A DNA stretch of 32,109 bases from an uncultured candidatus Brocadiaceae bacterium. GTDB lineage: Bacteria; Planctomycetota; Brocadiia; SM23-32. Under the pieces are notes generated by a model. It did no database searches. It was not told the DNA's origin and worked only from the letters and a program-made list of their open reading frames with translations. Position numbers and translations under genes: made by a program. The stretch covers positions 33,009-65,117 of the forward strand of contig CAZHPE010000001.1 in the NCBI GenBank assembly GCA_964534775.1, written 5' to 3'. Below, piece after piece: positions 1,194 through 32,024 of the stretch; position 1 is the stretch's first letter; every line of letters begins with the position of its first letter.

Positions 1194-2538
1194 CTACTTG
1201 AACTGCGGCAGGTGGCCCGAGGAGGCCGCCAGGAGCTCGCCGACCATCGTCTCGGTCTTCTCGGGTGGGATGGCCATCTCGTCCAGCAGCATCGCCTGCA
1301 CGGCCAAGTTCGGGTCGCCCTTGACGGCGGCCTCGACCACCATTTCCTGCCAGGCAATCCTCTTCTGCAAGAGCCCGGCGAGTGCCAGGGGGGCTTCGCC
1401 CGCATACAGCCCGCGCACCCCGACGCTGTCGGTGACGCCTTCGACCTCGAGCACGGCGTAGTCCGGCCGGTTCGGCACGCAGCCGCGGTTGGGGATGTTG
1501 ACGATGTGCGCCTTCCGCCGACCCAGCGCGATGGCCTCGACCAGCGAGCCCAGCCCCTCGCCGGTGACGGCGTCGCTCGGCTCCCCGGGCAGCTCTGCCC
1601 CCGCCAGCAGCTCCTGGAGCGCCTTGAACTGGGCGGCCCGATCCGGCGGCGCGGCCACTTCGCCCGCCTCGGGCTTGAACATGGAGTGGCCGACCTTGCC
1701 CAGGCCGTAGGGGATGTTCTTCGGGCCGCCGACCTGTGCTAGAAACGGGTAGAACTCGACGACGTGCGTGTCTTCGGGGAAGATGAGTTGGAAGCCGTAG
1801 ACGCGCGAGAGCTTCGATGCCATCTCCGAGCCGGGCTTCGGCGTGCGCTTGGCCGTGCGCCTGATCAGCTCCGGGTAGACGTCTCGCCCCCGGCAGCGCA
1901 GCCGCGTGAACCAGTAGTAATGGTTCGTGCCGATCCATACGGCGTCCAGCTCGTGCGGGTCCGCCTCCAGGGCGTCCGCCGCGTGCCGGAGCCCAATCTG
2001 CACGCCGTGGCAGATGCCGATGACGTTTGGCAGGCCCGTATACTTGAGCATCGCGCGGCAGAGCACGGCCATCGGGTTCGAGTGATTCAGCAGCACCACG
2101 TCGGGGCAGCGCTTCTCCATCTCGCGGCAGATCTCCGGGTAGATCGGCACGCTGCGCAGGCCCATCATCATGCCAGCTGGCCCCCCGGTGTCGCCGATGA
2201 TCTGGCAGATGCCATACCGGGATCAGGATGTCGGCCGCGTGGGCCGGGCTTCCGTAGGCGCTCCCCGCGCCCGCACCCGAGCTGCCGATGGCGGAGATGG
2301 CGAAGTCCGCCCCGTCCACGGCCTCCGCCAGGTCGCCGCACGCCCGCACCCTCATCCCCGAGCCGGCCCCATCGGCCATGCGGCGGTCGTGCGACGCCAT
2401 GATCCCGGCCTTCTCGTGGTCGATGTCATAGAGGACGATCTCGCTCCCGCTCAGCCCCTCGGCCACGACCAGGTCTGGCCGCGCCCTCGCGAAGTAGGCG
2501 CTGCCGCCGCCTAGGCAGACGATCTTCTTGCATGCCAT
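1194..2538 (-). pseudogene. GH4 NAD+-dependent glycosidase (MelA/alpha-galactosidase-like), split by a frameshift near 2217
   Basis: N-terminus MACKKIVCLGGGS...LYDID...ADFAISAI...DILIP (ATG 2538, GGAGGAG RBS) is in one frame. YGICQIIGDTGGPAGMMMGLR...NHSNPM...GICHG...GTNHYYW...VNIPNRG...VLEV is in another. Together they form one complete GH4. Confidence 0.88.
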
Positions 2539-2637: not shown

Positions 2638-2666
2638 TTGACGCATTCTGCGCCGCCCGGTAGGCT
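2638..2666 (+). promoter_or_regulatory. Putative sigma70 promoter for the DUF362 gene
   Basis: TTGACG-N17-TAGGCT, 46 bp upstream of ATG 2713. Confidence 0.6.
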
Positions 2667-2712
2667 CTATCGCTTGCATTTCGAGAGAACAGGGGACGTC
2701 TGGAGGCTGGGC

Positions 2713-3798
2713 ATGAACGAGTTGCTGTTTGCCGATGCACGGGTGCGCGAGCTTTCGTCCGACCACACGCTGCCGGCCAAGTTCCACCGGCTCTTGAAGC
2801 GGCTGGACCTGGAGTCGACGGTCAAGGATCGCTCGGTGGCGATCAAGATGCACCTTGGGGGGCACCTGGGCTATACGACCATCCGCCCGCTGTTCGTGCG
2901 CATGCTGGTGGAGGAGTGCAAGCAGGCGGGGGCGAGGAGCGTGGCGGTGATGGACGGCGACGTCGCAGGGGCGCCGGGGCGGGGCTATACGCCGGAGGTA
3001 GTCGGGGCGCCGATCGTCTCGTGCTTCGGCTGGACGGGCGACTACCTGTACAAGCGGAAGATCGGCTTCGGCGAGTTGAAAGAGGCCATATACGGCGGCA
3101 ACGTCTGGGATGCGGAGGTGTTCATCGACCTGTCCCATGTGAAGGGCCACGGCAACTGCGGCTTCGGCGGCGCCACCAAGAACATCGGCATGGGCTGCGT
3201 CATTGGGAAGACGCGCGGCGCCGTCCATCACCTCGCCGGCGGCATCGTCTGGGACGGGGAGAAGTGCATCCACTGCGGCAAGTGCATCGAGGAGTGCCCG
3301 AACAATGTCAACTCCTTCGACGAAGAGGGCAGCTATAACGTGAGCTGGCACAATTGCACGTTCTGCCAGCATTGCGTCATGATCTGCCCCACAGAGGCGC
3401 TCACGCCCGATGCGGATCGGTTCGATGCTATGCAGGAGGGCCTGGCACACGTCGCGGCGGTGTTCCTGAAGCACTTCAAGCCCGACAGGCTCCTGTTCAT
3501 CAACATCCTCACCGACATCACGATCTACTGCGACTGTTGGGGCATGAGCACCCCGCCGCTGGTGCCCGACATCGGCATCCTGGCCGGGCGCAACATCGTC
3601 GCGGTGGACAAGGCGAGTCTGGACAAGATCAAGTCGTCAAAGCTCATGCCCGAGGGCCTGCCCATCGGTGGTAAGCCCATGCGCAAGAAGGGACACCTCT
3701 TCCAGCGCCTGCACGGCAAGGACCCTTACGTCCAGGTGCGCAAGCTCGAGGAGCTGGGCTTCGGCCCCGCCGACTATAAGATCGTCGAGGTGCGCTGA
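2713..3798 (+). CDS. DUF362 domain protein with a 2x[4Fe-4S] ferredoxin domain
   Basis: AIKMHLG, SHVKGH...GFGGATKNIGMGC, CIHCGKCIEECP and CTFCQHCVMICP, CDC...PDIGILA...VAVDKAS; GGAGG RBS before ATG 2713. Confidence 0.88.
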   Translation: MNELLFADARVRELSSDHTLPAKFHRLLKRLDLESTVKDRSVAIKMHLGGHLGYTTIRPLFVRMLVEECKQAGARSVAVMDGDVAGAPGRGYTPEVVGAPIVSCFGWTGDYLYKRKIGFGELKEAIYGGNVWDAEVFIDLSHVKGHGNCGFGGATKNIGMGCVIGKTRGAVHHLAGGIVWDGEKCIHCGKCIEECPNNVNSFDEEGSYNVSWHNCTFCQHCVMICPTEALTPDADRFDAMQEGLAHVAAVFLKHFKPDRLLFINILTDITIYCDCWGMSTPPLVPDIGILAGRNIVAVDKASLDKIKSSKLMPEGLPIGGKPMRKKGHLFQRLHGKDPYVQVRKLEELGFGPADYKIVEVR

Positions 3799-7963: not shown

Positions 7964-9487
7964 TCAGGACGAGCCCGCAACGGCCGCCGACTGGTGCTTC
8001 TCCGTGATCCTGCGCTGGATGTCGTTCTTGTATAAACCCCACATACAGACCGGCACGGTTTTCACTGCGCCCGTCTCCGGGTCCTCGTAGGCGAACCCCG
8101 AGGGGCACCCCTCCAGTCGCGCGGACTCGACGGAGTGGTACTCTTCGAAAGGCAGCACCACCATGAGCATGGCGCTCTGGACGTTGGTGTGCTTGCGAAG
8201 CTGGTCTTTCAGCCGCTTGCCTATCGCCAGGCCGCCGAGGATGCGCGCCACCGCAAGGAAACGATTCCCCTTCAGGAGCCTCTTCGTGTCCAACGCACCC
8301 AGCATCAGGCCGCCGAAGGCCCGAATCACCATGAGCCGCCCCCGCCATTTCTCGAACCACTTGTGCGCGTCGAGGCGGGCCAGCTTGACGTCCAGCTTCT
8401 CGGCGCGGCTGACCCAATCCTGGGCTATGTCCTCCAGGGGTCGTTTCAGGTAATCGCTGAGCGGCCGATAGCGCTCTCCGTCGGACAGCAGGTAGGTGGC
8501 GGTCTCACAGTTCGGATGAACGCCGCCGAAGCGCAGGGGCGCAGCGCCGAAGAAATCGAGCGACAGCCTCAGGCTTTCCGACGGGCCCATGGGCAGGAAC
8601 TCCACCCGCCCTTCGGGGAACGCCTCGTCCACGATCTGCTCGACATCTTCGGTCGTGGTCGCAACGTCGGTCTCGAACTCCCCGTCCTCCCACGTCTCGG
8701 TGAGCGGGATCAGGTGCAGGCACTTGATGAAAGAGCGGCTCTCATGGCAGAAATCTATCAGCGACCGCATGTGCTTGTCGTTGATCTTGCGCGCGACGCA
8801 GCACATGATCGTGTTCTTGTGCCGGCTGTACTTCTTCAGGTTCTCGAGCGCCTTCAGCTTCTTTGGATATGCGGCAGGCGTCTTGCGGAGCCTTTGATAT
8901 ATCTCGGGGTCCAGTCCGTCGAAGGCCATCAGCACGTGGACCTTCTCTTCGCATATCCGCTTGCAGTATTCCTCGTCGGCCAGCCTGAGCCCGTTGGTGA
9001 CGATGCGCGGGGAAAGGCCGTAGTTGCGGGCCATCTCGATTATCTCGAACAGGTCGTCGCGCATCGTGGGCTCGCCGCCGAACAGATTCACGGCCGTCGG
9101 CTTGGGTTCCATATCCGCCAAGCCCTTGAAGATGTTCTCGAAGTAGCTGAGCGGCGGATGGAACTCGAACCCCATGCTCGGGATGTTGGCGATGCAGATG
9201 GGGCAGTTCATGTTGCAGCGGTTGGTAACGTCCAGGAATATCATGCGCGGATTATGCTGCACTTTGCAGTTTTCGCAGCGCAGCGAGCATTTCAGCGGCG
9301 AGTCGGGGTCGAAGTGGCAGATATCCCTCTTGCGCTGCCACCGGACCGCGTCCGAGCTCACCAGGGCCTCGGTGGCTCCGCAGTCAGGGCAGTTCTTCTT
9401 GATATATACCTTGCCGTCTCTTATTACATGTTCCGAAGAGACACGCTTGCGGCAGGTATTGCAGATTCCAAAATTGACCGGCGCCAT
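7964..9487 (-). CDS. Radical SAM protein with Tes/MJ0619 (GDGT-MAS)-like architecture
   Basis: N-terminal CNTC...KKNCPDCG, CSLRCENCKVQH, DVTNRCNMNCPICIAN (CxxxCxxC), GGEPT, TNG, FDG, HPNC, C-terminal RLEGC...VPVC. Confidence 0.85.
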   Translation of the reverse strand: MAPVNFGICNTCRKRVSSEHVIRDGKVYIKKNCPDCGATEALVSSDAVRWQRKRDICHFDPDSPLKCSLRCENCKVQHNPRMIFLDVTNRCNMNCPICIANIPSMGFEFHPPLSYFENIFKGLADMEPKPTAVNLFGGEPTMRDDLFEIIEMARNYGLSPRIVTNGLRLADEEYCKRICEEKVHVLMAFDGLDPEIYQRLRKTPAAYPKKLKALENLKKYSRHKNTIMCCVARKINDKHMRSLIDFCHESRSFIKCLHLIPLTETWEDGEFETDVATTTEDVEQIVDEAFPEGRVEFLPMGPSESLRLSLDFFGAAPLRFGGVHPNCETATYLLSDGERYRPLSDYLKRPLEDIAQDWVSRAEKLDVKLARLDAHKWFEKWRGRLMVIRAFGGLMLGALDTKRLLKGNRFLAVARILGGLAIGKRLKDQLRKHTNVQSAMLMVVLPFEEYHSVESARLEGCPSGFAYEDPETGAVKTVPVCMWGLYKNDIQRRITEKHQSAAVAGSS

Positions 9488-9533
9488 AATCCCGACCTTC
9501 CCTGCACGCCTCGCTCTTCCCCCACGCGTGCAA

Positions 9534-10100
9534 TCACTGTTCGTCCGCGGCATCCGCCGTCATGGACTCGCCCCCGCCATCGTCGCCCATGATGTCCAGC
9601 GTGGTCCAGCCGAGAAAGAAATCGGCGAGTTCCGCGAAGTGGCAGTTCAATGTGATGCCTACCCACCCCAGGTGCAGCAGCTTCGGACAGTTGAGCAACT
9701 CGTGCTTCGGAATGCTCGTCCCCTTGACCACCGGGATGATGCCCACCTGCCACGGTTCGGGCGAGTTCGGGTCTTCCCAGTCGACATCCTCGTATCCGAG
9801 CTGCTCGCTTCCCTTCAGGAGGATCCCGCCAGCCTTATGGCGCATCGGCAGCGCGCCGGCATCCCTATGCGCGATGCCAAGAAGCGTGCCGTCTACATTA
9901 GAGTACCCGAGCGACACGACGTTGACGAATCCCGCGTATAGAGACAGTTGGGGCTTCTTCGAGACCGTGATGCCGAACTCCATGAAGTCGAGCGCGTCGT
10001 TACCCCTCTTCTGCATGTAACTGCATCCGGTGCTGCTGAAGAGCAATGCGCTCAACAGGACGACGCCAGCCGCACACACAACAAACCTATTAGCCATCAT
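9534..10100 (-). CDS. Hypothetical lipoprotein
   Basis: Basic N-terminus, hydrophobic stretch and lipobox STG-C (MMANRFVVCAAGVVLLSALLFSSTGC). Lies 46 bp upstream of the radical SAM gene on the same strand. Confidence 0.75.
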   Translation of the reverse strand: MMANRFVVCAAGVVLLSALLFSSTGCSYMQKRGNDALDFMEFGITVSKKPQLSLYAGFVNVVSLGYSNVDGTLLGIAHRDAGALPMRHKAGGILLKGSEQLGYEDVDWEDPNSPEPWQVGIIPVVKGTSIPKHELLNCPKLLHLGWVGITLNCHFAELADFFLGWTTLDIMGDDGGGESMTADAADEQ

Positions 10101-11516: not shown

Positions 11517-13853
11517 CTATAGAAGACGCTGGAATCCGCTGTGGGCCACGGGGCCCTTCAGGCGCTTTTTCACCTCTTCCTTCTCAAGCGCGTCGGCGAT
11601 CTCGGCGAACACCTCATCGATTGCCACGGCGTAGCGCCCGATGATCCGGTCAGTGTGCGCCAGCGTAACGGAGATGGACAGCCCGGCGAGGTAGCCGCGC
11701 TCCAGCATGAGCTGAATGTAGAGGGTCTTGAGCTCGGCGGCGAGCGCGTGCTCGAAAGCGAAGTGCGCCAGGGCCGGGTAGGTATCCTCAACCTCTACCG
11801 GAAGTCCGTGCCGCCCGGCCGCCGCGCGCCAGGCGTCCTGGACCTTTCGGCCGATGCGTGCGCAGTGCGCCGGCACATCTACCTCCTGCATCTTCCGGAT
11901 GGTGGCGAGCGCCGCCGCCGGTCCGATTCCCTCCGTCCAGTATGTGCTGCTGATGAAGGACGTGTGAGCGCCCTCCATGGCCTCGCGCGTTCCAATCACG
12001 GCGGCCATGGGGTGGCCGTTGGCGATGCTCTTGGCGAAGACCGCCATGTCGGGCGAGACCCCGAGCCTAAGATGCGCCCCGCCCAGAGCGAGCCGCCAGC
12101 CGATCGACACTTCGTCGAAGACCAGCAGCGCCCCGGCCCTGTGCGCCTCGTCGCGGACGAACTCGAGGAACCCCGGCTCGGGGTCCCGGTAGCGGCACGG
12201 CTCCATGACGACCGCCGCCAGCCGGTCCCCGTGCTCGTCGAGGATTCTCGTCAGTTCCTCGCGGTTGTTGTAGGTGAAGGTGAGCGAGGTGCCGCGGAGC
12301 TCCCTCGGCACCCCGAGCGGATCGAGCCCGGAGAGCAGGTGGCCGCGCAGGGCGTCGTTCTCGCCGAGGTTCGCCGCGAGATACCAGTCGTGCCAGCCGT
12401 GGTAGCCGCAGATGGCGATCAGCGAGCGGTCGGTCGTGGCGCGCGCTATGCGGGCCGCAATGCTCATTATCTCGCCACCGGTGCGCGCATACCGCACCTG
12501 CTCCGCCCATGGGTGCAGCTCGCAAAGGAGCCTGGCGAGCTCGACCTCCTCGGGCGGGCTGAGCGTGCAGAAGCTGCCCCGGGCGATGCGGCGCTGGACC
12601 GCGCGGGTTACATCCGGGTTCCTGAACCCCAGCAGGCATGCCGAGATGCCGGTCTTGCCGACGTCGTAGTAGTGCCTCCCGTCCAGGTCCCATACCTCGC
12701 ACCCGCGCGCCTCGCGGAAGTAAGCGGGCCACTGATCCGGGGCTTCCATCTCGGGGCGTTTGCTAAGGAGCTGCGTCCCGCCGGGGATGATGGTCTTCGC
12801 CTCGCGGTAGAGGTCCTGGACGACGCCCTCCGTCTCTGCCTTCATGCCGAGCAGGCGCAGGGCGTTGTCGCAGAAGACGTCCTGGAGGTCTTCTGCGCTC
12901 AGGAACCCGCCATCGGCCGCCCTGAGCAGCGCGTGGAGCGATTCCAGGCCGACCATGACCGGTTCGCCGAAGAACGCCCTCTCATTCCATTCCATCTGGT
13001 CCGTGGCGACCCAGACGAAACCGGTTCCGAGCGTGACGGCGCGCCCGCGCTCCTGCGAGACCGGGAAGTCGGTGCCCCACAGCAGGCGGCGCGGGCCGAA
13101 CTCGTCCAGGATGGCCGCGAACGGCTCGGCCTCGCAGATGGCCGCCGAATCGAACCAGACGTTCTCGAGCCCCCGCAGCGCGGAGATGCCCTTCACGGTG
13201 TTGGTAGCGTTGAATCCCCGTGCCGCGTGGGCCAGCAGAAGCCTGGCGTTCGGGTACTTCTCGCATCGGGTGACGATGCTCTTCTGGTTCTGCGGGTCCG
13301 AAAGCGCGCCGAGCCGCACCATGTGAAGCAGGATGACCAGCCCGCGCTCTTCGGCCAGCTCCCACGCCCACTCGGGCACGAACTCATCCAGCGTACACTC
13401 GTACGAGGGCGATTTCCCGCTGTAGACGTGGTAGGGCTTGAAGCAGCGCACGCGCGGGTTCTGAAGCAGCGCCTCGGCGGCCTCCCGCGTTTGCTCGGGG
13501 TAAACAAGGATGGAAGCCGCACACCCCGGGGCGTCAGCAACCTGCGCGGCCACGTATGCGTTGGCCGCGTCGGGATCGCCGTCCCGGCTGGGGTGGGGCG
13601 TGAACAGGGCGCCGCAGAGGCATTCGGCGCCCACCTGGCCGCCGATGTAGTGGCGCCAGGTCGCTTGGTCGTACTCCGGCGGACCGCTTGCGTAGAAGGC
13701 GCCGTAGGGGTCCAGATGCTCTTTGTGGAAGAGGTGCGCGTGGACGTCGAAGAGGCGTTCCGGAAGGCGCGCCTGCAGCTCCGCCGCAAACGCGCGGTCC
13801 GCCTCCGTGAAGGTCCATCCCGGGGGGATGTCGGGGTTCATCATCTCGCTCAT
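11517..13853 (-). CDS. Fusion of an N-terminal amidohydrolase-superfamily domain and a C-terminal class III aminotransferase (GSA-aminomutase-like)
   Basis: N-half: DVHAH, KPYH, LLHM, LAHAARGF, WFDS, GTDFP. C-half: IPGGTQLLSKRPE, RTGGE, GYHGWHDW, MEP, FDEV, FAKSIANG, SSTY. Confidence 0.9.
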   Translation of the reverse strand: MSEMMNPDIPPGWTFTEADRAFAAELQARLPERLFDVHAHLFHKEHLDPYGAFYASGPPEYDQATWRHYIGGQVGAECLCGALFTPHPSRDGDPDAANAYVAAQVADAPGCAASILVYPEQTREAAEALLQNPRVRCFKPYHVYSGKSPSYECTLDEFVPEWAWELAEERGLVILLHMVRLGALSDPQNQKSIVTRCEKYPNARLLLAHAARGFNATNTVKGISALRGLENVWFDSAAICEAEPFAAILDEFGPRRLLWGTDFPVSQERGRAVTLGTGFVWVATDQMEWNERAFFGEPVMVGLESLHALLRAADGGFLSAEDLQDVFCDNALRLLGMKAETEGVVQDLYREAKTIIPGGTQLLSKRPEMEAPDQWPAYFREARGCEVWDLDGRHYYDVGKTGISACLLGFRNPDVTRAVQRRIARGSFCTLSPPEEVELARLLCELHPWAEQVRYARTGGEIMSIAARIARATTDRSLIAICGYHGWHDWYLAANLGENDALRGHLLSGLDPLGVPRELRGTSLTFTYNNREELTRILDEHGDRLAAVVMEPCRYRDPEPGFLEFVRDEAHRAGALLVFDEVSIGWRLALGGAHLRLGVSPDMAVFAKSIANGHPMAAVIGTREAMEGAHTSFISSTYWTEGIGPAAALATIRKMQEVDVPAHCARIGRKVQDAWRAAAGRHGLPVEVEDTYPALAHFAFEHALAAELKTLYIQLMLERGYLAGLSISVTLAHTDRIIGRYAVAIDEVFAEIADALEKEEVKKRLKGPVAHSGFQRLL

Positions 13854-13855
13854 GC

Positions 13856-14824
13856 TCACGCCGTCCTTTCGCTTATCTCGTCCAGCGGAACCTTGCGCCC
13901 GCCCTCCTTGCGGCTGCGGGTGCCGGCGATGATGATCTTCATCATCTCGACCGTCTGCGGCCACGGGATCGGCCGCTCGCCGGTGCGAAGATAATCCACG
14001 AAGCTCTGGAGCTGCGTCTTGAATGCGTAGAACGTGTCGGAAACGCTAGCCTTCAGGTCCGACTTCGTGCCCATGACGGAGAGGTGCCCGAACCCGCCGT
14101 GCATGTCCTTTATTGCGATCAGGACCACATCAACGCCGCGCTCGTGCTCCAGGTGGACGATGTTGCGGTCTATGGTGCCGGTGTTGCGCGCGGAGGTAAA
14201 CCCTGGCCCGACAAGGGGATACAGTCCTTCCAGGGCGTGAACCCCGTAGCGCTCCCAGGTCTTCGCCGTGGAGAGCGAAAGAAACCGCAGCTCTCCGATT
14301 TCGCCCAACTGCTCCCGCGCCGCCGCGAACTCGCGCGAGTAGCGCAAGGCGCTCGAGGAGATGAGCGCCTTGCCTTCCTGCACCCAGGCGTGAAAGGCCT
14401 GGAGGTCGGGCTCGTTATCGACGAGCGGCTTGTCGACGAAGATCGGCAGCCCGGCCTCGATAAACGGGCGCGCCCGGTCCACGTGCTCGTGCCCGATGTC
14501 GGTGGCGATGATGACGGCGTCCACCTGGCCGATCACGTCCGCGGCCGTCTCGACGACGTTGGGTATCCTCGAAGCCGCGGCGACCCTTTCGGCAGCGGTC
14601 GGATCGTCGGTCCAGATGTGGGTCACGCGGGCGCCCTCGATCTGGAGCGTCGCGGGGTCCTCGGCGCCGAGGTACTCGGGGATCGTGGCGTAGGGGCAGT
14701 CCGCCATCGCCTCCCGATCGTACCCGTTGAAGATGGCGCTCCAGGAGTAAGGGTGGCCGTTCCCGTCGACCATGCCGAGCATGGCCAGGCGTATGTTGTC
14801 TGCGTCCGGCACGAGGGCTGCCAT
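13856..14824 (-). CDS. Gfo/Idh/MocA family oxidoreductase
   Basis: RLAMLGMVDGNGHPYSWS, DAVIIAT, FVDKPL, SSSALRY, YGVH; the stop abuts the next start. Confidence 0.85.
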   Translation of the reverse strand: MAALVPDADNIRLAMLGMVDGNGHPYSWSAIFNGYDREAMADCPYATIPEYLGAEDPATLQIEGARVTHIWTDDPTAAERVAAASRIPNVVETAADVIGQVDAVIIATDIGHEHVDRARPFIEAGLPIFVDKPLVDNEPDLQAFHAWVQEGKALISSSALRYSREFAAAREQLGEIGELRFLSLSTAKTWERYGVHALEGLYPLVGPGFTSARNTGTIDRNIVHLEHERGVDVVLIAIKDMHGGFGHLSVMGTKSDLKASVSDTFYAFKTQLQSFVDYLRTGERPIPWPQTVEMMKIIIAGTRSRKEGGRKVPLDEISERTA

Positions 14825-24897: not shown

Positions 24898-24926
24898 TTG
24901 ACAGACGCGCGCCGGGGCCATACATT
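24898..24926 (+). promoter_or_regulatory. sigma70 promoter for the isomerase-RLP-kinase operon
   Basis: TTGACA-N17-TACATT. Confidence 0.7.
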
Positions 24927-25051: not shown

Positions 25052-26773
25052 ATGGCCAAGGCACAGATGCTTTCGGCACCCGCGGATGCAGCGGTCAACG
25101 CGGTGACGTTCGGCGTATGCTCGGCGGCTGATCCGCGCATCCCTCCGGAGGCGCGCGAGCGCTGCGTCAACATCGTCCGGATGGCTGCCGAGACCATCGC
25201 GAAGGGCGTGAAGATACCCGACGGTCGGCCCGTGAACGTCGTCTGGACGGACGTGGTGGTCGGCGGCGAGCGGGACGCGGACGTCGTCGCGCGGCAGTTC
25301 CGCGAGGCATGCGTCGACGCCGTGGTCGTCACGCCCGATACCTGGGCGTTCCCGCAGCCCACGCTCATGAGCCTGTTCAGCCACCTTCCCAAGGACATCC
25401 CCATCAACATCACCTGCGGCAATAACGGCTCCAAGCCCGGGATGGTCTACTCCCACGGCGTGAACGGTGCGCTGGCGCAGGGCGGCCGTCTGACGACGCT
25501 TAACGTGGGCGACTGGCTGGCGACGGGCCAGAAGCCGAGGATGACGCCCGAAACGGCCGAGGCGCTCATCGACTGGTGCTACGGCGCGCTGGCGGCCGCG
25601 GGCCTGAAAGGGCGGCGCGTGGTGATTTTCGGCCACGACTCCATGGGCATCGAGACCTGCCTGGCCCACGTGATACCCACGCGCAATACCTTCGGGATCG
25701 AGATCACGCGCCTGGACATGAAGCTCCTGGGCGACATGCTGACCGGCGGCGCGTACGACAAGAAGGAGGTCAAGGCGCTGCGGGCGTGGTTCAACCGGTA
25801 CGTCGGGGACCGCATCGAGTTGCGCGATGAGGCCGACGACGAGAAGTTCGACCTCTCGCTGGCGATGTACCTCATCGTGCGCGACATCATGGACGATCTG
25901 GACGCGGTCGGTGGCGGCTTCCAGAGCCAGCTCGAATGGGGCTCCGACCCCCGCTGCGTGCCGATGCCCGTGGCCGACCCGATGGAGAGCCTGTTCAACG
26001 CCACCTTCGATCACCGCGGGCGCAAGGCGCCCGTGCCTTACGCGACCGAGTCCGACGCGCAGGGCGTCCTGACGATGCTGGTCATGACCTGGCTCACGGG
26101 CGGCAATCCCCCGCTGTTCATGGACTTCCGGAAGGTCTGGGAGCCGTGGGAGATCAAGCTCGCGTGCGAGAAGCTCGAGGTCCCCTGCACGGGCGACGAG
26201 CCGTGGATGGAGAAGGGGTTTGTGGACGGCGAGAACTCCGGCTCCGCCAGCCTCAACTGGGCGGCCGCGCCCGGCGCCTCCGTCAGCGAGTGCATGAACG
26301 GGGTCTCGATGGGGGCGGCCGGTAGGTGGTATGAGTTCGCCGGCGGCGGGAACAACGTGCGGTTCGTCTCGCCCGGCGGCATAGAGGGCATAGCGGCCCG
26401 GCTGAGCTACAGCGACCTGACCGGCATGTTCTCGCTCCTGTGGGACGAGGCCTACAGCGTCGATCTGCCCCCCGAGCTGGCCGAGGTTGTCTGCAACGCC
26501 TCAACCTACACCTGGCCGCACTCCTTCCTGGTGCCCAAGTACGCGACCATGAAGGAGTACAAGCAGTACGCGCCGACCAACCACTCCCACATGACGTGGA
26601 ACCTGCCGCCGGCCCGGCTGGAGCACTGGATGGACCTGACCCAGGTGCTCTCGGAGACGCCCTGGGCGGCGCGGGATGCGTGGATCGACGGCGTGGACAG
26701 GCCGCTGCCGCTGCTCTACCTCCTCAACGGCGGCGAGAACAATGCCAAGCTGAAGCTGGCCGGGAAGGCGTAG
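25052..26773 (+). CDS. L-fucose/D-arabinose isomerase family protein
   Basis: AGGAGG RBS; DPRI, TWAFP, DSMGI, GFQSQLEW, and candidate Mn ligands in ATESDAQG (Glu), FMDFR (Asp), TWPH and PTNH (His). Confidence 0.88.
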   Translation: MAKAQMLSAPADAAVNAVTFGVCSAADPRIPPEARERCVNIVRMAAETIAKGVKIPDGRPVNVVWTDVVVGGERDADVVARQFREACVDAVVVTPDTWAFPQPTLMSLFSHLPKDIPINITCGNNGSKPGMVYSHGVNGALAQGGRLTTLNVGDWLATGQKPRMTPETAEALIDWCYGALAAAGLKGRRVVIFGHDSMGIETCLAHVIPTRNTFGIEITRLDMKLLGDMLTGGAYDKKEVKALRAWFNRYVGDRIELRDEADDEKFDLSLAMYLIVRDIMDDLDAVGGGFQSQLEWGSDPRCVPMPVADPMESLFNATFDHRGRKAPVPYATESDAQGVLTMLVMTWLTGGNPPLFMDFRKVWEPWEIKLACEKLEVPCTGDEPWMEKGFVDGENSGSASLNWAAAPGASVSECMNGVSMGAAGRWYEFAGGGNNVRFVSPGGIEGIAARLSYSDLTGMFSLLWDEAYSVDLPPELAEVVCNASTYTWPHSFLVPKYATMKEYKQYAPTNHSHMTWNLPPARLEHWMDLTQVLSETPWAARDAWIDGVDRPLPLLYLLNGGENNAKLKLAGKA

Positions 26774-26785
26774 CGTGCCGGAAAA

Positions 26786-26814
26786 TTGACAGGTGTGGCC
26801 GGAGTGGGTACCTT
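26786..26814 (+). promoter_or_regulatory. Internal sigma70 promoter upstream of the RLP gene
   Basis: TTGACA-N17-TACCTT, 12 bp after the isomerase stop. Confidence 0.65.
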
Positions 26815-26885
26815 GCTCTGTCCGCAGCGCCCCCGTCCCGAGAGGGGCGAGGGCCATCGGCCCAGGAAGAAAGGCGAAGCGATCC

Positions 26886-28235
26886 ATGTACACGCGTTAC
26901 TACTATCCGGAGATATTCGAACAGACGCTCGACGGCATCGACCGCAGCACGCACATAATGGCGACGTATTACGTGGCCGACGAGCTGGCGGGCGAGGACT
27001 TTATCGAGCACTTCTCGCTGATTCAGGCCATGGTCCTCGAGGGTTCGACGGGAACCTGGCAGGACGTGCCGGATCATACGCTGGAGGTCCGCCAGCGGCT
27101 GTGCGGCAAGATGGTGGGCTATTACGAGGTCCCCACCGACAGCCCATACAAGCGCGCTGCGGTGGTGCAGCTCGCCTTCCCGATAGATGCCTGGACCGAC
27201 AATGTGCCGATGATGCTTCTTAGCATCGCAGGCAACTGCTTCGCGTTCAGCAAGGGGCTGCGCCTCCTGGACGTGTTCATTCCGGAGAAGTTGCTGGCGA
27301 ACTTCAAGGGCCCGAAGTTCGGCGTGCCGGGCATTCGCGAGCTGATGGGCGAGCAGGAGCGGCCCTTCTCTCTCCACATCATCAAGCCGAAGATGGGCAT
27401 GACGCCCAAGCAGCTCGCCAAGCAGTGCTACGAGACGGCGATGGGCGGGGTGGACATGATCAAAGACGACGAGATGACCAGCGACGTCTACAACTCGAGC
27501 TACGATGACCGCCTAAAGGCCGTGCTGGAGGCCCTGGACAAGGCCGAGACGAAGACCGGCAAGCGGGTCATCTACTACCTGAGCATCACTGACGAGCCGC
27601 GTCGCATCTTCGATAAGGCGGCGAGGGCCGTCGAGCTCGGCGCGCGCGGCCTTCTGATCTGCTACTCGGCGGGCCTGCCGGTCCTTCGCCAGATTGCGGA
27701 GGACCCGGCGATCAATGTGCCGATACTGTTCCACGGCTCGCACATGATCGCCGCCACGCCCACCATCTCATGGCCGGTCTTCGCCAAACTCGCCCGGCTG
27801 TGCGGCGCCGACCTGATGCTCACACCCACGTACTGGTCGAGCATTCCGATGGTGAGCCTGGAGGAAGGCATCCGCACCGCACACATAAAGCTCGCGCCTC
27901 TGGGCCACATCAAGCCCATGTGGCCGATGCCCTGCGCGGGCATCTACCCGGGGCTGATGCCCATACTGGTCGGGGAGTACGGGCCGGACATCATCGTCCC
28001 GGCCGGCGGCGGCATGCTGGGGCATCCGGACGGTTACCGGGCCGGTGCGGCGTCCTGGCAGCAGGCGATAAGCGCGACCATGTCCGACGAGCACATCGCC
28101 GAGTACGCGAAACGAGCCGAGAACAAGGAGCTGCGGCGTGCGCTGGAGCACTGGGGCCACATCGAACGCCCCAAGACCCCCTGGCTGCGCGTGGCCCCGA
28201 AGTTCCACCCGAAGAAGATGACCTTCGACGAGTGA
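26886..28235 (+). CDS. RuBisCO-like protein (form IV, non-carboxylating)
   Basis: EGSTGTW, AGN, GPKFG..GIR, IKPKMG, DMIKDDE, LFH, ARLCGAD, GGGMLGHPDG..AGA. It lacks the HR arginine, the H327 equivalent and the loop-6 GK. No small subunit or phosphoribulokinase lies nearby. Confidence 0.93.
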   Translation: MYTRYYYPEIFEQTLDGIDRSTHIMATYYVADELAGEDFIEHFSLIQAMVLEGSTGTWQDVPDHTLEVRQRLCGKMVGYYEVPTDSPYKRAAVVQLAFPIDAWTDNVPMMLLSIAGNCFAFSKGLRLLDVFIPEKLLANFKGPKFGVPGIRELMGEQERPFSLHIIKPKMGMTPKQLAKQCYETAMGGVDMIKDDEMTSDVYNSSYDDRLKAVLEALDKAETKTGKRVIYYLSITDEPRRIFDKAARAVELGARGLLICYSAGLPVLRQIAEDPAINVPILFHGSHMIAATPTISWPVFAKLARLCGADLMLTPTYWSSIPMVSLEEGIRTAHIKLAPLGHIKPMWPMPCAGIYPGLMPILVGEYGPDIIVPAGGGMLGHPDGYRAGAASWQQAISATMSDEHIAEYAKRAENKELRRALEHWGHIERPKTPWLRVAPKFHPKKMTFDE

Positions 28236-28259
28236 TCGTCACAGGAGAGGTTGGCAGCA

Positions 28260-29744
28260 ATGGCGAGACGCCGCTTTCTCGCATTCGATCTGGGGGCCGA
28301 GAGCGGGCGCGCCGTCGTCGGCACGCTCGAAGGCGGCCGGCTCGCGCTCGATGAGATCCACCGGTTCCCGAACGAACCGGTCGAGTTGTGCGGCACGCTA
28401 CACTGGGACGTGCTGAGCCTCTTCAGGAACGTGCTGGCGGGAATGAGGGCGTACGTCGAGCGTTTCGGCGACTCGGTGGACGGGATCGGAATCGACACCT
28501 GGGGCGTGGACTTCGGCCTCCTGGCGGCGGACGGGGCGTTGCTTCAGAACCCGGTGCATTACCGCGACCGGCGCACCGACGGCATGCTGGAAGAGTTGCA
28601 GCGGCGGATCGCCCCGCAAGAGTTATATGAGAAGACCGGGCTGCCCCAGTCGCCCGTTCATACCGTCTGCCAACTGCTCTCCATGCGCCGGAAGCGCAGC
28701 CCGATCCTCGAGTCCGCCGCCACGCTCCTCATGATGCCCGACCTGTTCGCGTACTTCCTGACGGGCGAGAAGCGCTGCGAACGTACCGAGGCCGTCAGCA
28801 GCCAGCTCTATGATCCGCGAAGCGGCGAATGGCACAAGGGCGTCTTCGAGGCCCTCGATCTGCCGCTTTCCATCATGCCGGAGCTTGTGGACCCCGGCAC
28901 CGTCCTGGGGGAGCTTAGCCAGTCGGTCAAACGCGAAACCGGCCTCAAGGAAGCGCCCGTGATTGCCGCGTGCACGCATGATACGGCGGCGGCCGTCGCG
29001 GCCGTACCGGGCAGGGGCGATGGCTGGGCCTTCCTGAGTTCCGGCACGTGGTCCGTTCCGGGGGCGCTCACCGCCGAGGTCGTGACCTCCGAGGGGGCCC
29101 TGGCGGCCGGGATGCTCAACGAACTGACGCTCGGGAGCACGTTCCTGTGTCGCAACATCCTGGGCCTGTGGCTCCTCCAGCAGGCGCGCGCCGTGTGGCA
29201 GCGGGGCGGCGAGGATTATTCGTATGCCGACCTCGTCAGCCTGGCGGAAGGCGCGCCCGAAGGCGGCGCCCTGGTGCACATCGACGACGCCGCTTTCCTG
29301 GCGCCGGAGGACATGTGCCGGGCCATCCGGGACTACTGCAAGCGCACCGGGCAGCCGCAGCCGGAGGGGCCAGCCGAGATTTCGCGCTGCATCCTGGAGA
29401 GCCTCGCCCTGTGCTATCGCCGCGCGCTGGATCAGCTCAAGGCCATCCTCGGGCGGGATTTCGACGTTATGCACGTTGTAGGCGGCGGCTCTCTCAACAC
29501 GCTCCTGTGCCGGCTCACGGCCGATGCGACGGGCATTCCGGTTCTTGCCGGGCCGGTCGAGACGGCCGTCGCGGGAAACGTTCTCGTGCAGGCTTATGCC
29601 CGCGGCTTTCTCGGCTCGCCTCAGGAGATTCGCGACGTCGTCCGCGAGTCGTCCGAACTGGTCGAATATGAACCCCACGACGCCGCGCGGTGGGACGAGC
29701 GCTACGGCCGGTATGTCGAGCTGGCCGACGGGCGGCACGGATAG
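28260..29744 (+). CDS. FGGY carbohydrate kinase, rhamnulokinase/fuculokinase-like
   Basis: AFDLGAESGR, HRFPN, GIDTWGVDF, HYRDRRT, MPDL, HDTA, SSGTWS, NILGLWLLQ, ESLAL, VGGGS, AGPVE, GN. Confidence 0.92.
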   Translation: MARRRFLAFDLGAESGRAVVGTLEGGRLALDEIHRFPNEPVELCGTLHWDVLSLFRNVLAGMRAYVERFGDSVDGIGIDTWGVDFGLLAADGALLQNPVHYRDRRTDGMLEELQRRIAPQELYEKTGLPQSPVHTVCQLLSMRRKRSPILESAATLLMMPDLFAYFLTGEKRCERTEAVSSQLYDPRSGEWHKGVFEALDLPLSIMPELVDPGTVLGELSQSVKRETGLKEAPVIAACTHDTAAAVAAVPGRGDGWAFLSSGTWSVPGALTAEVVTSEGALAAGMLNELTLGSTFLCRNILGLWLLQQARAVWQRGGEDYSYADLVSLAEGAPEGGALVHIDDAAFLAPEDMCRAIRDYCKRTGQPQPEGPAEISRCILESLALCYRRALDQLKAILGRDFDVMHVVGGGSLNTLLCRLTADATGIPVLAGPVETAVAGNVLVQAYARGFLGSPQEIRDVVRESSELVEYEPHDAARWDERYGRYVELADGRHG

Positions 29745-29786: not shown

Positions 29787-30653
29787 TCAACGCGCCTTGC
29801 CGACGCTGCCGAACAGTTCCAGCTTCCCTTCGACATACCCCTCTATTCGCTTCATCGCCTCGGCAAGCGCCGGGCGGGGGTCGACATACTCCGGGCCCGC
29901 GCCGAGGCCGGCGCGGACGGCGTCCACGAAGGCCTTCCGCAGTCCGTGGGCCACGTTCACCTTCGCTATGCCCAGGCCGATGGCCGTGCGCATCTGCTCG
30001 TCCGGAATGCCCGTGCCACCGTGAAACACGAGGGGAATTGACACTCTCTGCGCAATTCGATCCAGCCGGTCGAAGTCCATCTCTATCTTCTTGGTGTCGA
30101 AGCAGCCGGAGATCGACCCGACGCTGACGGCCAGGAAGTCGATGCCGGACTTCTCGGCGAACTCTGCGGCCTCGTCAGGATCGGTCATCATCGCCTCGAT
30201 CTGCTCGGGGCTGGCGTTCGGGTCGCGGCTCACCTGCCCCAGTTCGCCTTCCACCGCCGCCCCAAGGGGCCTTGCGGCCGCGACGACCCGCTGCATGAGG
30301 GCGATGTTCTCCTCCAGCGGCAGGTGAGAGCCGTCCGCCATTACCGACGGAAACCCGAGCTTCAGACAGTCGACGATCAGATCAAGCGGCATCTCGCGCG
30401 AGCCGTGGTCCAGGTGAAAGGTCGCCGGGACGGCCGCCGCTTCAAGCGCCGAGAGGACCGAGCGGCAGAGCGACTCCTTCGCGTAGAAGTCGAAGTTTAT
30501 GAAGCTCGTCTGGATCATCACGGGCGAGCTGGTGCGTTCGCAGGCGCGCAGCACCCCTTCGAGCAGCTCGAGATTGAACACGTCGAATCCCGCGATGCAG
30601 TACCCGTCTGCCGCGGCGTCCTCGAGCATCTGCCTGGCCGGAACCAAAGGCAT
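29787..30653 (-). CDS. Class II fructose/tagatose-bisphosphate aldolase family protein (atypical metal site)
   Basis: SPVMIQ, FHLDHG, SVMADGS, VEGELG, TDPDEA, LAVSVGSISG, LVFHGGTG, KVN. Confidence 0.9.
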   Translation of the reverse strand: MPLVPARQMLEDAAADGYCIAGFDVFNLELLEGVLRACERTSSPVMIQTSFINFDFYAKESLCRSVLSALEAAAVPATFHLDHGSREMPLDLIVDCLKLGFPSVMADGSHLPLEENIALMQRVVAAARPLGAAVEGELGQVSRDPNASPEQIEAMMTDPDEAAEFAEKSGIDFLAVSVGSISGCFDTKKIEMDFDRLDRIAQRVSIPLVFHGGTGIPDEQMRTAIGLGIAKVNVAHGLRKAFVDAVRAGLGAGPEYVDPRPALAEAMKRIEGYVEGKLELFGSVGKAR

Positions 30654-30869: not shown

Positions 30870-30898
30870 TTGACACGCAGTCTGCAATGGCCTACAGT
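30870..30898 (+). promoter_or_regulatory. sigma70 promoter for the UroD/MtaA family gene
   Basis: TTGACA-N17-TACAGT, 37 bp upstream of ATG 30936. Confidence 0.72.
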
Positions 30899-30935: not shown

Positions 30936-32024
30936 ATGACGAGCAGAGAACGGGTCCTTGCCGTGTTTGAAGGGAAGCTGCCCGACCGGTGCCCGATCGA
31001 TTTCCAGGCGACCCCGGATGCCGAAGCCATGCTGACGGATGCGTTCGGCCTGAGCGACGCGGAGGCTCTGCGCGAGTACCTCGGCTGCGACATCCGGGTG
31101 GTCTCGCCGGTGCCGAAGCCGGCGAACCAGGGAGTGTTTGCGCGCCACCTGTTCGTCGAGGAGGCCGGACAGGGCAGGTGGCTCGATAACTGGGGCCTCA
31201 CGTGGCAGCGGGTGGAGGTGCCGGCGGGAGACGTCTTCTACGATGTCGTCGATGCGCCCCTCAAGGACGTTGCGGAAGTGGCCGAGGTCGAGGACTATCC
31301 GTTCCCGAAGCCGGGACAGGACTGGGATTTCTCCGGGTTGCAGGGCGAGGCTCTGCGGCATTCCGGCCGCGCGGTGGCCGGGCAGACGGCGGCGGTCTTC
31401 GACGATGCGTGGCGTCTGCTCGGCCTGGAGAAGATGTTCATCGACATCGCGCTCAGGCCCGAGCTTGTGCACGCCGTGCTCAGAAAGGTCTGCGACTACT
31501 GGCTCGAGTTCGCGCGGCTTGAGTTCGAGGCGGCCGCCGGCGCGCTCGACCTGATGTGGATATTCGACGATCTGGGCACCCAGAACGGGCTCGTCATCTC
31601 CCCGGAAACATGCCGGGAGTTCGTCCTGCCGCTGATCGGGGAGCGCGCGGCGCTTTGCCACAGATACGTGGCCAGGGCGATCCTGCACTGCTGCGGCGGC
31701 ATCGAGCCAGTTATCGAGGACATAATCGGCGCGGGGGTGGACGCGCTCAACCCCATCCAATCGGCCCCCCGGGGGATGGACCGGGGGCGGCTGAAGGCAA
31801 GGTATGGCGACCGGCTCGTCTTCCACGGTTCAGTGGACGAGCAGCGGGTGCTTGTGCCGGGCACGCCCGACGTCGTCGCGGCCGATACGCGGGAGTGTAT
31901 CGACACCCTCGGGGCGGGCGGCGGCTACATTGTGGCGGCCTCCCACAAGATCGAAACCGACATTTCCCCCGAGAACGTCAGAGCGATGTTCTTCACCGCC
32001 ATGGAGCACGGTCGCTACCCCTGA
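30936..32024 (+). CDS. Uroporphyrinogen decarboxylase / MtaA-CmuA methyltransferase family protein
   Basis: MTSRERV...PDRCP, DNWG, DDLGTQNG..ISPE, LHCCG, LNPIQ, FHGSVDEQ..L..GTP, GGGYI..SH. Confidence 0.88.
   Translation: MTSRERVLAVFEGKLPDRCPIDFQATPDAEAMLTDAFGLSDAEALREYLGCDIRVVSPVPKPANQGVFARHLFVEEAGQGRWLDNWGLTWQRVEVPAGDVFYDVVDAPLKDVAEVAEVEDYPFPKPGQDWDFSGLQGEALRHSGRAVAGQTAAVFDDAWRLLGLEKMFIDIALRPELVHAVLRKVCDYWLEFARLEFEAAAGALDLMWIFDDLGTQNGLVISPETCREFVLPLIGERAALCHRYVARAILHCCGGIEPVIEDIIGAGVDALNPIQSAPRGMDRGRLKARYGDRLVFHGSVDEQRVLVPGTPDVVAADTRECIDTLGAGGGYIVAASHKIETDISPENVRAMFFTAMEHGRYP

Follow-up and report, generated by a model that had tools for sequence, protein, structure and literature searches.

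The stretch of DNA analysed here (the window) comprises 32,109 nucleotides of contig CAZHPE010000001.1 (positions 33,009 to 65,117 of the forward strand; assembly GCA_964534775.1), which derives from an uncultured candidatus Brocadiaceae bacterium. The genes of interest encode a FucI-like isomerase, a form IV RuBisCO-like protein (RLP) and a FucK/RhaB-like kinase, and they are considered here as parts of a putative RLP-dependent sugar pathway.

Organisation of the locus

The window has a G+C content of 66%, and open reading frames (ORFs) with a high G+C content at the third codon position (GC3) mark real genes. Three co-oriented genes were found on the plus strand where an earlier note on this DNA had proposed them, and all three are backed by coding-type GC3 values (0.85-0.93). 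The features of the gene set are as follows.

24898-24926 (+): promoter-like site TTGACA-17-TACATT, about 125 nt 5' of the isomerase gene (consensus scan, 10/12 matches)
25052-26773 (+): divergent aldose-ketose isomerase of the FucI/D-arabinose-isomerase family, 573 aa (Pfam, NCBIfam and PDB relatives)
26886-28235 (+): form IV RLP, 449 aa (ORF from GTG 26793)
28260-29744 (+): FGGY kinase of the FucK/RhaB (deoxy-ketose 1-kinase) subfamily, 494 aa (ORF from TTG 28251)

The site at 24898-24926 was the sole promoter-like match that the consensus scan gave 5' of the gene set; such sites are pattern matches only, with three in the region as against 0.8 expected in shuffled sequences. The isomerase and RLP genes are separated by 112 nt, the RLP and kinase genes by 24 nt. 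No structured element was detected in the 112-nt gap, whose fold z-score (-0.64) was like that of shuffles. The RLP probably comprises 449 aa, because its homologues measure 447-450 aa and an ATG at 26886 lies behind a purine-rich stretch. The kinase (ORF 28251-29744) probably starts at ATG 28260, behind AGGAGAGG. As the earlier note had stated, the window lacks a FucA/RhaD-type aldolase (domain PF00596 in none of the 28 ORFs scanned), and no methionine-salvage family, including MtnK, MtnA, MtnX and MtnD, was seen among the same ORFs.

The RLP and its active site

The RLP scored above the cut-offs for the Pfam domains RuBisCO_large (144 bits) and RuBisCO_large_N (37 bits) and failed those of all curated RLP and RuBisCO models in NCBIfam. 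Its scores in bits (cut-offs in brackets) were 265 (409) for NF007095 and 220 (513.6) for TIGR03332, both of which describe MtnW, 219 (438) for the RuBisCO model PRK04208, 218 (497) for type III RuBisCO, 108 (489) for PRK13475 and 136 (700) for OiaX. The nearest solved structures were the MtnW proteins of Geobacillus and Bacillus (209 and 204 bits), an Alicyclobacillus RLP and archaeal form III enzymes, and the ESM Atlas returned generic RuBisCO clusters and nothing more specific. When 1.84 billion cluster representatives were scanned, 1828 relatives were obtained at E <= 0.001. The two nearest showed 53% and 48% identity, and no other full-length protein exceeded 43%.

The active site was analysed in an alignment of 149 clade members, consisting of the window RLP, 28 sequences from the RLP loci described below and 120 further homologues. 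Invariant in all of them (RuBisCO numbering) were E60, W66, N123, K175, K177, K201, D203, E204, H294, G381, G403 and G404, and position 65 was Thr or Ser throughout. The carbamylation/metal motif KDDE was kept in 149/149 and, with the two Pfam domains, places the protein in the RuBisCO large-subunit superfamily as a form IV RLP. Replaced, by comparison, were H327 (Leu in 149), K334 (Ser in 147), S379 (Cys in 141) and R295 (Ala or Gly, also Cys or Pro). A carboxylating RuBisCO of forms I-III was rejected, as Lys334, His327, Arg295 and Ser379 are missing and the scores lie under the cut-offs. If the positions have the roles that we take them to have in RuBisCO (enolisation, P1 site, P2 site, loop-6 lysine), the RLP is predicted to keep the P1 phosphate site along with the residues for enolisation, and to have lost the P2 site together with the loop-6 Lys334. 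Retention of P1 and loss of P2 fit a substrate with a single phosphate beside the carbonyl, such as a ketose-1-phosphate, so the substrate class suggested by the earlier note appears compatible with the predicted active site. Asn148 of the RLP (RuBisCO Asn123) lies opposite Lys98 of the Geobacillus kaustophilus enzyme in the alignment with 2oek and is Asn in 149/149 members; Lys98 is what we take to be the proposed general base of Geobacillus MtnW.

A phylogenetic tree of 118 rows was calculated by an IQ-TREE quick search under LG+G4, with branch support from the approximate likelihood ratio test SH-aLRT. It contained 13 clade members and 105 representatives, the latter being those of 380-600 aa among 150 listed. 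The window RLP fell into a clade with a support of 100 that is extended by L030/P0121 and then by P0122 (support 99 each) and whose sister is formed by three representatives still carrying Lys334. Sequences with Lys at position 123 formed a separate clade (support 100), which includes P0151, a bona fide MtnW control scoring 652 bits against NF007095 and 641 bits against TIGR03332. Together with the sub-cut-off scores and the Asn at position 123, this separation agrees with the earlier assignment of the protein to form IV, outside the characterised methionine-salvage clade.

Clade members are 60-80% identical across metagenome-assembled genomes (MAGs) labelled from 11 phyla, and the closest relatives of the window RLP (77-80% identical) belong to other phyla. 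Neither a sample of 300 further genomes from the window's phylum, which gave five other matches of 30-33% identity, nor one of 200 further genomes from the phylum of G301 contained an orthologue; phylogenetic profiling by random samples was uninformative for this protein. Since the RLP is rare and patchy and its nearest relatives lie in other phyla, horizontal transfer is the simplest history, in which the RLP-kinase pair would have arrived beside a resident FucI-like gene.

The kinase and the FucI-like isomerase

The kinase carries the domains FGGY_N and FGGY_C and scored 400, 365 and 117 bits against the equivalog models TIGR02627, NF007925 and TIGR02628 (cut-offs 528, 639 and 471). Its best solved relatives were 4c23, deposited as 'L-fuculose kinase FucK' (321 bits), and the RhaB structure 2cgj (303 bits), with other FGGY kinase structures at no more than 58 bits. 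The protein is thus a predicted member of the FucK/RhaB subfamily below the equivalog cut-offs, an assignment that does not imply its specificity. According to the pathway outline in PMC10986504, FucK and RhaB phosphorylate C1 of 6-deoxy-ketohexoses. The window kinase gene is also the only close RhaB/FucK-like gene that tblastn detected in the window's genome, so the two FucI-like isomerases of that genome probably depend on it.

The isomerase contains the Pfam domains Fucose_iso_N1 and N2 and a weak C domain. It scored 142 bits against NF008220 (cut-off 775) and 118 bits against TIGR01089 (cut-off 850), and its best solved relatives were the D-arabinose isomerase 3a9r (119 bits) and FucI (82-96 bits). 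The equivalents of the catalytic/metal residues Glu337 and Asp361 of E. coli FucI are kept, and the alignment stops short of the third such residue, His528. It is a member of the FucI family, below the equivalog cut-offs, and a predicted aldose-ketose isomerase. Of 301 genomes sampled from the window's phylum, 34 carry a FucI-like gene, and no RLP was found within 1.5 kb of it at the 29 other FucI-like loci of that phylum. At one of these (L055, positions 2-1423, G222:C89), a 43% identical FucK/RhaB-like kinase lies directly 5' of the FucI-like gene, again without an RLP within 1.5 kb on either side, and the two genes look like a conventional isomerase-kinase pair.

Conserved neighbourhood of the RLP

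To collect loci with a related RLP, one genome per GTDB species was screened by a pattern scan; 33 such loci were obtained from 31 MAGs. By NCBI label, these MAGs belong to Acidobacteriota, Armatimonadota, Omnitrophota, Planctomycetota, Latescibacterota, Nitrospirota, Bacillota, Actinomycetota, Lentisphaerota, Verrucomicrobiota and Chloroflexota. Neighbouring genes up to 9 kb from the RLP were counted by tblastn with Pfam-checked representatives; as the loci are related to one another, the following counts are not independent.

23/33 loci: E1alpha and/or E1beta of the 2-oxoacid/acetoin-dehydrogenase type, usually with E2 (one more locus has E2 only)
20/33 loci: xylose-isomerase-like (XI-like) TIM barrel of about 326 aa
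15/33 loci: FucK/RhaB-like kinase
15/33 loci: RpiR regulator, mostly directly upstream of the RLP gene
15/33 loci: URO-D-like protein(s)
1/33 loci: class II FBA-type aldolase
0/33 loci: FucI-like isomerase

The adjacency of RLP and kinase thus recurs. The three-gene set does not, an outcome that the earlier note had named as counting against its reading: a FucI-like gene stands beside the RLP at none of the 33 loci and an RLP beside the FucI-like gene at none of the 29, and the conserved isomerase partner of the RLP is the XI-like TIM barrel in place of the FucI that the earlier note had assigned to it. The FucI-like gene accordingly appears to be a local, lineage-specific addition to the RLP-kinase pair.

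The genes are usually arranged in the order RpiR-RLP-(kinase)-isomerase-(URO-D x1-2)-E2-E1alpha-E1beta. In a more divergent branch (60-63% identity) the order is RLP-E2-E1alpha-E1beta, with gaps of less than 150 nt at six of its loci (L021, L023, L024, L025, L026 and L028). Of the ten loci that lack E1, five offer less than 1.6 kb of downstream sequence (L001, L002, L006, L016 and L022), L009 offers 3.6 kb, and four offer 8 kb (L011, L013, L017 and L027). The best solved relative of the XI-like TIM barrel was an uncharacterised 'xylose isomerase' (3ktc, 205 bits), followed by class I xylose isomerases and L-rhamnose isomerase, and the protein is, judged by these matches, probably an aldose-ketose isomerase acting on free sugars. 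The RLP-linked E1beta passed the cut-off of the pyruvate dehydrogenase (PDH) subfamily model NF006667 (321) with 334 bits at L003 and 357 bits at L015; the RLP-linked E1alpha remained just below the TIGR03182 cut-off (363 bits; cut-off 394) and had human PDH as its best PDB match.

Further genes were recorded at single loci or small groups of them. L028 additionally encodes an E3, a monosaccharide-type ABC transporter and LacI and DeoR regulators. Genes of the class II aldolase/MtnB family were present at four of the 33 loci (L019, L021, L024, L028), histidine-phosphatase-family proteins at L025 and L028, Amidohydro_2 proteins at L025, L026 and L028, class III aminotransferases at L025, L026 and L027, an apiosidase-like glycosidase at L024 and Leloir genes at L027. 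A B12-binding corrinoid protein is encoded between the URO-D-like genes and the RLP gene at L023 (7187-7828, Actinomycetota) and L030 (4677-5288, Anaerolineae), which suggests a corrinoid methyltransferase step within the sugar cluster. In a Pfam census of the nearest 101 of 158 unlabelled neighbour ORFs from the 33 loci, no family occurred in more than three ORFs, and hence no further universal partner emerged; apiosidase-like domains were found in 2/101 and a weak GH67N match in 3/101.

The same census contained two ORFs with a hydrazine synthase alpha middle domain (PF18582) and two of the APH phosphotransferase family, whose fold we take to be that of MtnK. RLP, kinase or E1beta matches were split across frames at L032 (8001-9346 and 9417-10872), L033 (8209-9206) and L021 (4805-5885), reflecting either frameshifted pseudogenes or long-read assembly errors.

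The module in the window's own genome

The MAG that contains the window comprises 3.13 Mb in 367 contigs (92.7% complete, 4.7% contamination). An XI-like isomerase gene with 78% identity was found at the end of contig C163, next to genes for a GH123-like glycosidase, an Amidohydro_2 protein and a GFO/MocA oxidoreductase. Contig C3 carries an E2-E1alpha-E1beta set whose neighbours encode a fucosidase-like glycosidase and BNR proteins. When 22 E1beta sequences were compared in a tree, the copy from C3 fell within the clade formed by the RLP-linked E1betas (support 96 and 97), and the genome's four other E1beta paralogues lay outside that clade. By these matches the module appears to be present in the genome, but its genes lie apart on three contigs, at least in the assembly. 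The genome further carries a second FucI-like isomerase (72% identical, C18), two PF00596-like genes (C24 and C113, tblastn only) and a homologue of the corrinoid protein (C48, 42% to the L023 protein). Its URO-D/MtaA superfamily is expanded, the window's URO-D-like protein matching 22 contigs by tblastn, e.g. C107, C124, C133, C6, C193, C37 and C47. For kinase-less RLP clusters, three of five genomes were found to carry a 55-62% identical kinase elsewhere, in one case beside an RpiR gene.

Proposed pathway

From the gene identities, clade membership, active-site pattern and synteny observed, we infer a substrate and a series of chemical steps. An aldose, most likely an omega-deoxy sugar, would initially be converted to the ketose, mostly by the XI-like TIM-barrel enzyme; in the window's organism, the FucI-like enzyme may also carry out this isomerisation and may supply the same kinase. 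The FucK/RhaB-type kinase would then generate the ketose-1-phosphate, which the RLP would bind via its P1 site and whose carbonyl it would shift along the chain, using the carbamylated Lys201 together with Lys175, Lys177, Asp203, Glu204, His294, Asn123 and Glu60. Finally, the thiamine diphosphate (ThDP)-dependent E1alpha/beta and the lipoyl E2, with E3 where it is encoded, would oxidatively cleave the resulting ketol phosphate to an acyl-CoA and a triose phosphate. In the neatest case, a 5-deoxy-pentulose-1-phosphate would give 1-deoxy-xylulose-5-phosphate (DXP) and then acetyl-CoA and glyceraldehyde-3-phosphate. Alternatively, a 6-deoxy-hexulose-1-phosphate could be turned into the 4-ketose and cleaved to lactoyl-CoA and glyceraldehyde-3-phosphate.

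That RLP and kinase belong to a widely scattered, uncharacterised RLP-dependent sugar pathway with an aldolase-free mechanism, to which the FucI-like gene is local, is the reading that we tentatively favour, at somewhat short of an even chance. The fuller version, an undescribed breakdown of deoxy-sugars in which the RLP 'walks' the carbonyl, an E1-E2-E3 complex cuts the methyl ketol ('reverse DXS') and some lineages add a corrinoid/URO-D demethylation, is considerably more speculative and, taken as a whole, rather unlikely.

Several known systems bear on these steps. Acetoin dehydrogenase complexes, which have the same architecture as the RLP-linked one, cleave a methyl ketol to acetyl-CoA and an aldehyde. 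The RLP-linked E1alpha, E1beta and E2 share their domains with acetoin and pyruvate dehydrogenases and score near or above PDH models, but the complex differs in being encoded together with an RLP in sugar clusters, and this in MAGs whose labels span 11 phyla. According to an excerpt of PMC3424233, DXP is formed in vivo by a mutant E. coli PDH E1, which makes E1 chemistry on DXP plausible. For the carbonyl shift, the closest parallel is the Rhodospirillum rubrum RLP, the 5-methylthioribulose-1-phosphate 1,3-isomerase of the methylthioadenosine (MTA)-isoprenoid shunt. As far as the relevant passages of PMC6302742 describe it, this likewise form IV enzyme acts on a ketose-1-phosphate by successive enolisations, as is proposed here, and yields 1-methylthio-xylulose-5-phosphate plus the ribulose epimer, the carbonyl having moved by two carbons; after desulfurylation the product is DXP, a methyl ketol like the putative E1 substrate. 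Its substrate arises from MTA via a phosphorylase and MtnA, whereas the present one would come from a free-sugar isomerase and a FucK/RhaB kinase, and its partner is a cupin methylsulfurylase where the window clade has E1/E2. By analogy, the window-type RLP would work most like this isomerase; among the curated models and solved structures, its closest matches are MtnW.

The upper part of the route resembles the L-fucose and L-rhamnose pathways and the dihydroxyacetone phosphate (DHAP) shunt for 5-deoxy-pentoses, which lead from aldose to ketose to ketose-1-phosphate by an isomerase and a 1-kinase or its equivalent, followed by a class II aldolase, in the portions of PMC10986504 and PMC6079011 that outline them. 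It would differ in that most RLP loci lack a FucA/RhaD/Ald2-type aldolase and have the RLP and a thiamine/lipoyl complex instead, giving a CoA thioester and not a free aldehyde. A precedent for RLPs in sugar clusters with kinases and isomerases is given by the apiose/apionate enzymes (the decarboxylase OiaX and the transcarboxylase/hydrolase OiaT; PMC6302742, citing Carter 2018). These use 3-oxo acid-sugar 4-phosphates made by DUF1537 kinases, none of which was seen here. An unrelated RLP near epimerase and DeoR genes appears, with no assigned function, in a section of a genome paper (PMC7325909).

Some observations weigh against the proposed pathway. The kinase is absent from 18/33 RLP loci, and in two of the five genomes with a kinase-less cluster only a 35% FGGY match was found, so a kinase-made substrate is not universal. 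E1/E2 are absent from L011, L013, L017 and L027 despite 8 kb flanks. The recurrent URO-D-like, class II aldolase-family, Amidohydro_2 and histidine-phosphatase genes, as well as the corrinoid protein at two loci, are left unexplained by the model. In the window's own genome, the distribution over three contigs of a MAG with 92.7% completeness and 4.7% contamination makes it uncertain that all parts reside in one cell. As E1beta passes the PDH cut-off and E1alpha is nearest to human PDH, the complex might also be an ordinary pyruvate dehydrogenase acting on pyruvate that the pathway releases.

Alternative explanations

In a route built on one option of the earlier note, the three genes of the window would suffice to convert D-arabinose (or L-fucose) to the ketose, the ketose-1-phosphate and then, by the action of the RLP, a pentulose-5-phosphate that enters the pentose phosphate pathway with no further dedicated enzyme. 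Such a route agrees with the co-orientation of the genes behind one promoter-like site, with a D-arabinose isomerase as the best solved relative of the isomerase, with the status of the kinase as the genome's only close RhaB/FucK-like gene, which probably serves the FucI-like isomerases, and with an RLP active site compatible with a 1-phosphate. The pairing is, however, unique to the window's genome, the gap between isomerase and RLP is 112 nt as against 24 nt between RLP and kinase, and the conserved partners are the XI-like isomerase and E1/E2. The latter, the strongest partner of the RLP and encoded outside the window, would have no role left if the product were a pentulose-5-phosphate, which makes the pentose-phosphate route improbable. 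What stands of the earlier note is therefore the form IV, non-salvage nature of the RLP, its adjacency to the kinase and the fit to a 1-phosphate; the conserved trio and the pentulose-5-phosphate route do not. Methionine salvage, with the RLP as the MtnW-type 2,3-diketo-5-methylthiopentyl-1-phosphate enolase named in automatic JGI annotations of many homologues, is scarcely credible. MtnW gave the best NCBIfam and PDB matches (265 bits; 2oek, 209 bits), a class II aldolase/MtnB-family gene occurs at 4/33 loci, and the MtnW/YkrW structures 2oek and 2zvi share with the RLP the Leu at H327, the Ser at K334, the loss of R295 and the KDDE and GGG motifs. The identity was nevertheless rejected: the scores of 265 and 220 bits lie far under 409 and 513.6, with 652 for a true MtnW representative, all 149 members have Asn at the Lys98 position, and the two clades are separate (SH-aLRT 99-100 for both) and have different gene neighbours. 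MtnW also has Gly at E60 and lacks K177 in addition to carrying Lys at N123, where the window clade keeps all three RuBisCO residues, and the salvage genes MtnK, MtnA, MtnX and MtnD are missing from the window ORFs scanned.

Two further explanations retain the E1/E2 complex. The RLP might enolise the ketose-1-phosphate and eliminate the 1-phosphate to give a 1-deoxy-2,3-diulose, a diketone then cleaved by E1/E2. Beta-elimination from the RuBisCO enediol is a known side reaction and resembles methylglyoxal synthase; the complete enolisation set is kept, Lys334 and the P2 site are lost, and an E1/E2 of the acetyl-forming type is adjacent at 23/33 loci. Elimination would waste the ATP spent by the kinase, and we know of no characterised RLP that eliminates phosphate in this way. 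The invariant glycines of the P1 site argue just for binding, and the data do not separate elimination from isomerisation; we give elimination a small chance, equal to that of the three-gene route. Slightly better placed, although still distinctly unlikely, is a methylated sugar (an O-methyl deoxy-sugar or 5-methylthioribose) from which URO-D-like and corrinoid proteins would remove or transfer the methyl group before RLP and E1/E2 act on the demethylated or thio-sugar phosphate. O-, S- and halogen-demethylases that depend on corrinoids belong to the UroD superfamily, as stated in an excerpt of PMC10418091. URO-D-like genes, often two paralogues, lie between the isomerase and E2 genes at 15/33 loci, with the corrinoid protein beside them at L023 and L030, and the apiosidase-like and weak GH67N matches of the census represent nearby glycosidases. 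The corrinoid protein, however, is found at just 2/33 loci, no activating enzyme was identified, and a literature search for corrinoid-dependent sugar demethylation found nothing relevant. The sole PDB match of the URO-D-like protein UROD1 was MtaA (23 bits), and UROD1 has HSDG at the position of the His-x-Cys motif that we take to bind zinc in MtaA. With more than 20 URO-D-like matches in the window's genome, adjacency of such a gene there is weak evidence.

Flanking genes in the window

The genes downstream of the kinase were annotated as follows.

29787-30653 (-): class II ketose-bisphosphate aldolase (PF01116; TIGR00167, 231 bits, cut-off 215.6)
30936-32024 (+): URO-D/MtaA-superfamily protein; the gene has a promoter-like site of its own (30870-30898)

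The aldolase was considered as the 'missing aldolase' of the gene set and rejected, a homologue occurring at one of the 33 RLP loci and 7 kb off. It is convergent with the kinase gene and near an RLP at that locus only, so it is probably unrelated to the module. The URO-D-like protein is 26-31% identical to those of other RLP loci and its gene may be accessory to the module. About 890 bases of the contig follow the window. Located 5' of the gene set is a minus-strand block of sugar and amino-sugar genes, which encode a DHDPS-family lyase, two HpcH/HpaI aldolases, an SDR protein, NagA, DegT, GFO/MocA oxidoreductases and BNR proteins. The earlier note had not mentioned the class II aldolase.

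Four other genes of the window were noted. An ORF at 11517-13964 (-) encodes an 815-aa fusion of Amidohydro_2 and class III aminotransferase domains, which is not a close homologue of the separate Amidohydro_2 and class III aminotransferase genes at L025, L026 and L027. Amid the sugar-catabolic genes lie those for a radical SAM protein whose N-terminal zinc ribbon is of the HMPTM type (7964-9553, -) and for a DUF362 protein with an inserted 4Fe-4S ferredoxin (2638-3798, +). The family 4 glycoside hydrolase ORF at 1194-2171 (-) covers just the last third of the N-terminal domain profile; its start may be located farther upstream, or the gene may be truncated.

Significance

A literature search gave no gene cluster like the three-gene set or its pathway, in agreement with the earlier note, although a prior description elsewhere cannot be excluded. 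Likewise, a full-text search returned no description of an RLP clustered with a dehydrogenase-type complex, and earlier RLP work may hold one. RLP-dependent sugar catabolism is a known kind of system, of which the RLP-E1/E2 module would be a variant with a well-supported comparative-genomic signal and a putative mechanism.

To our knowledge, the reactions of just a handful of RLPs are known, and each newly characterised member has brought unexpected chemistry and ideas on the evolution of carbon fixation. Compared with MtnW, the clade of the window RLP has retained more of the RuBisCO active site; the automatic JGI names given to it point to methionine salvage. If the proposed chemistry is true, the bond energy would be conserved as a thioester and the release of toxic acetaldehyde or lactaldehyde avoided, and the pathway would represent a new logic for the catabolism of deoxy-sugars or 5-deoxyribose in bacteria of soil, sediment and water.

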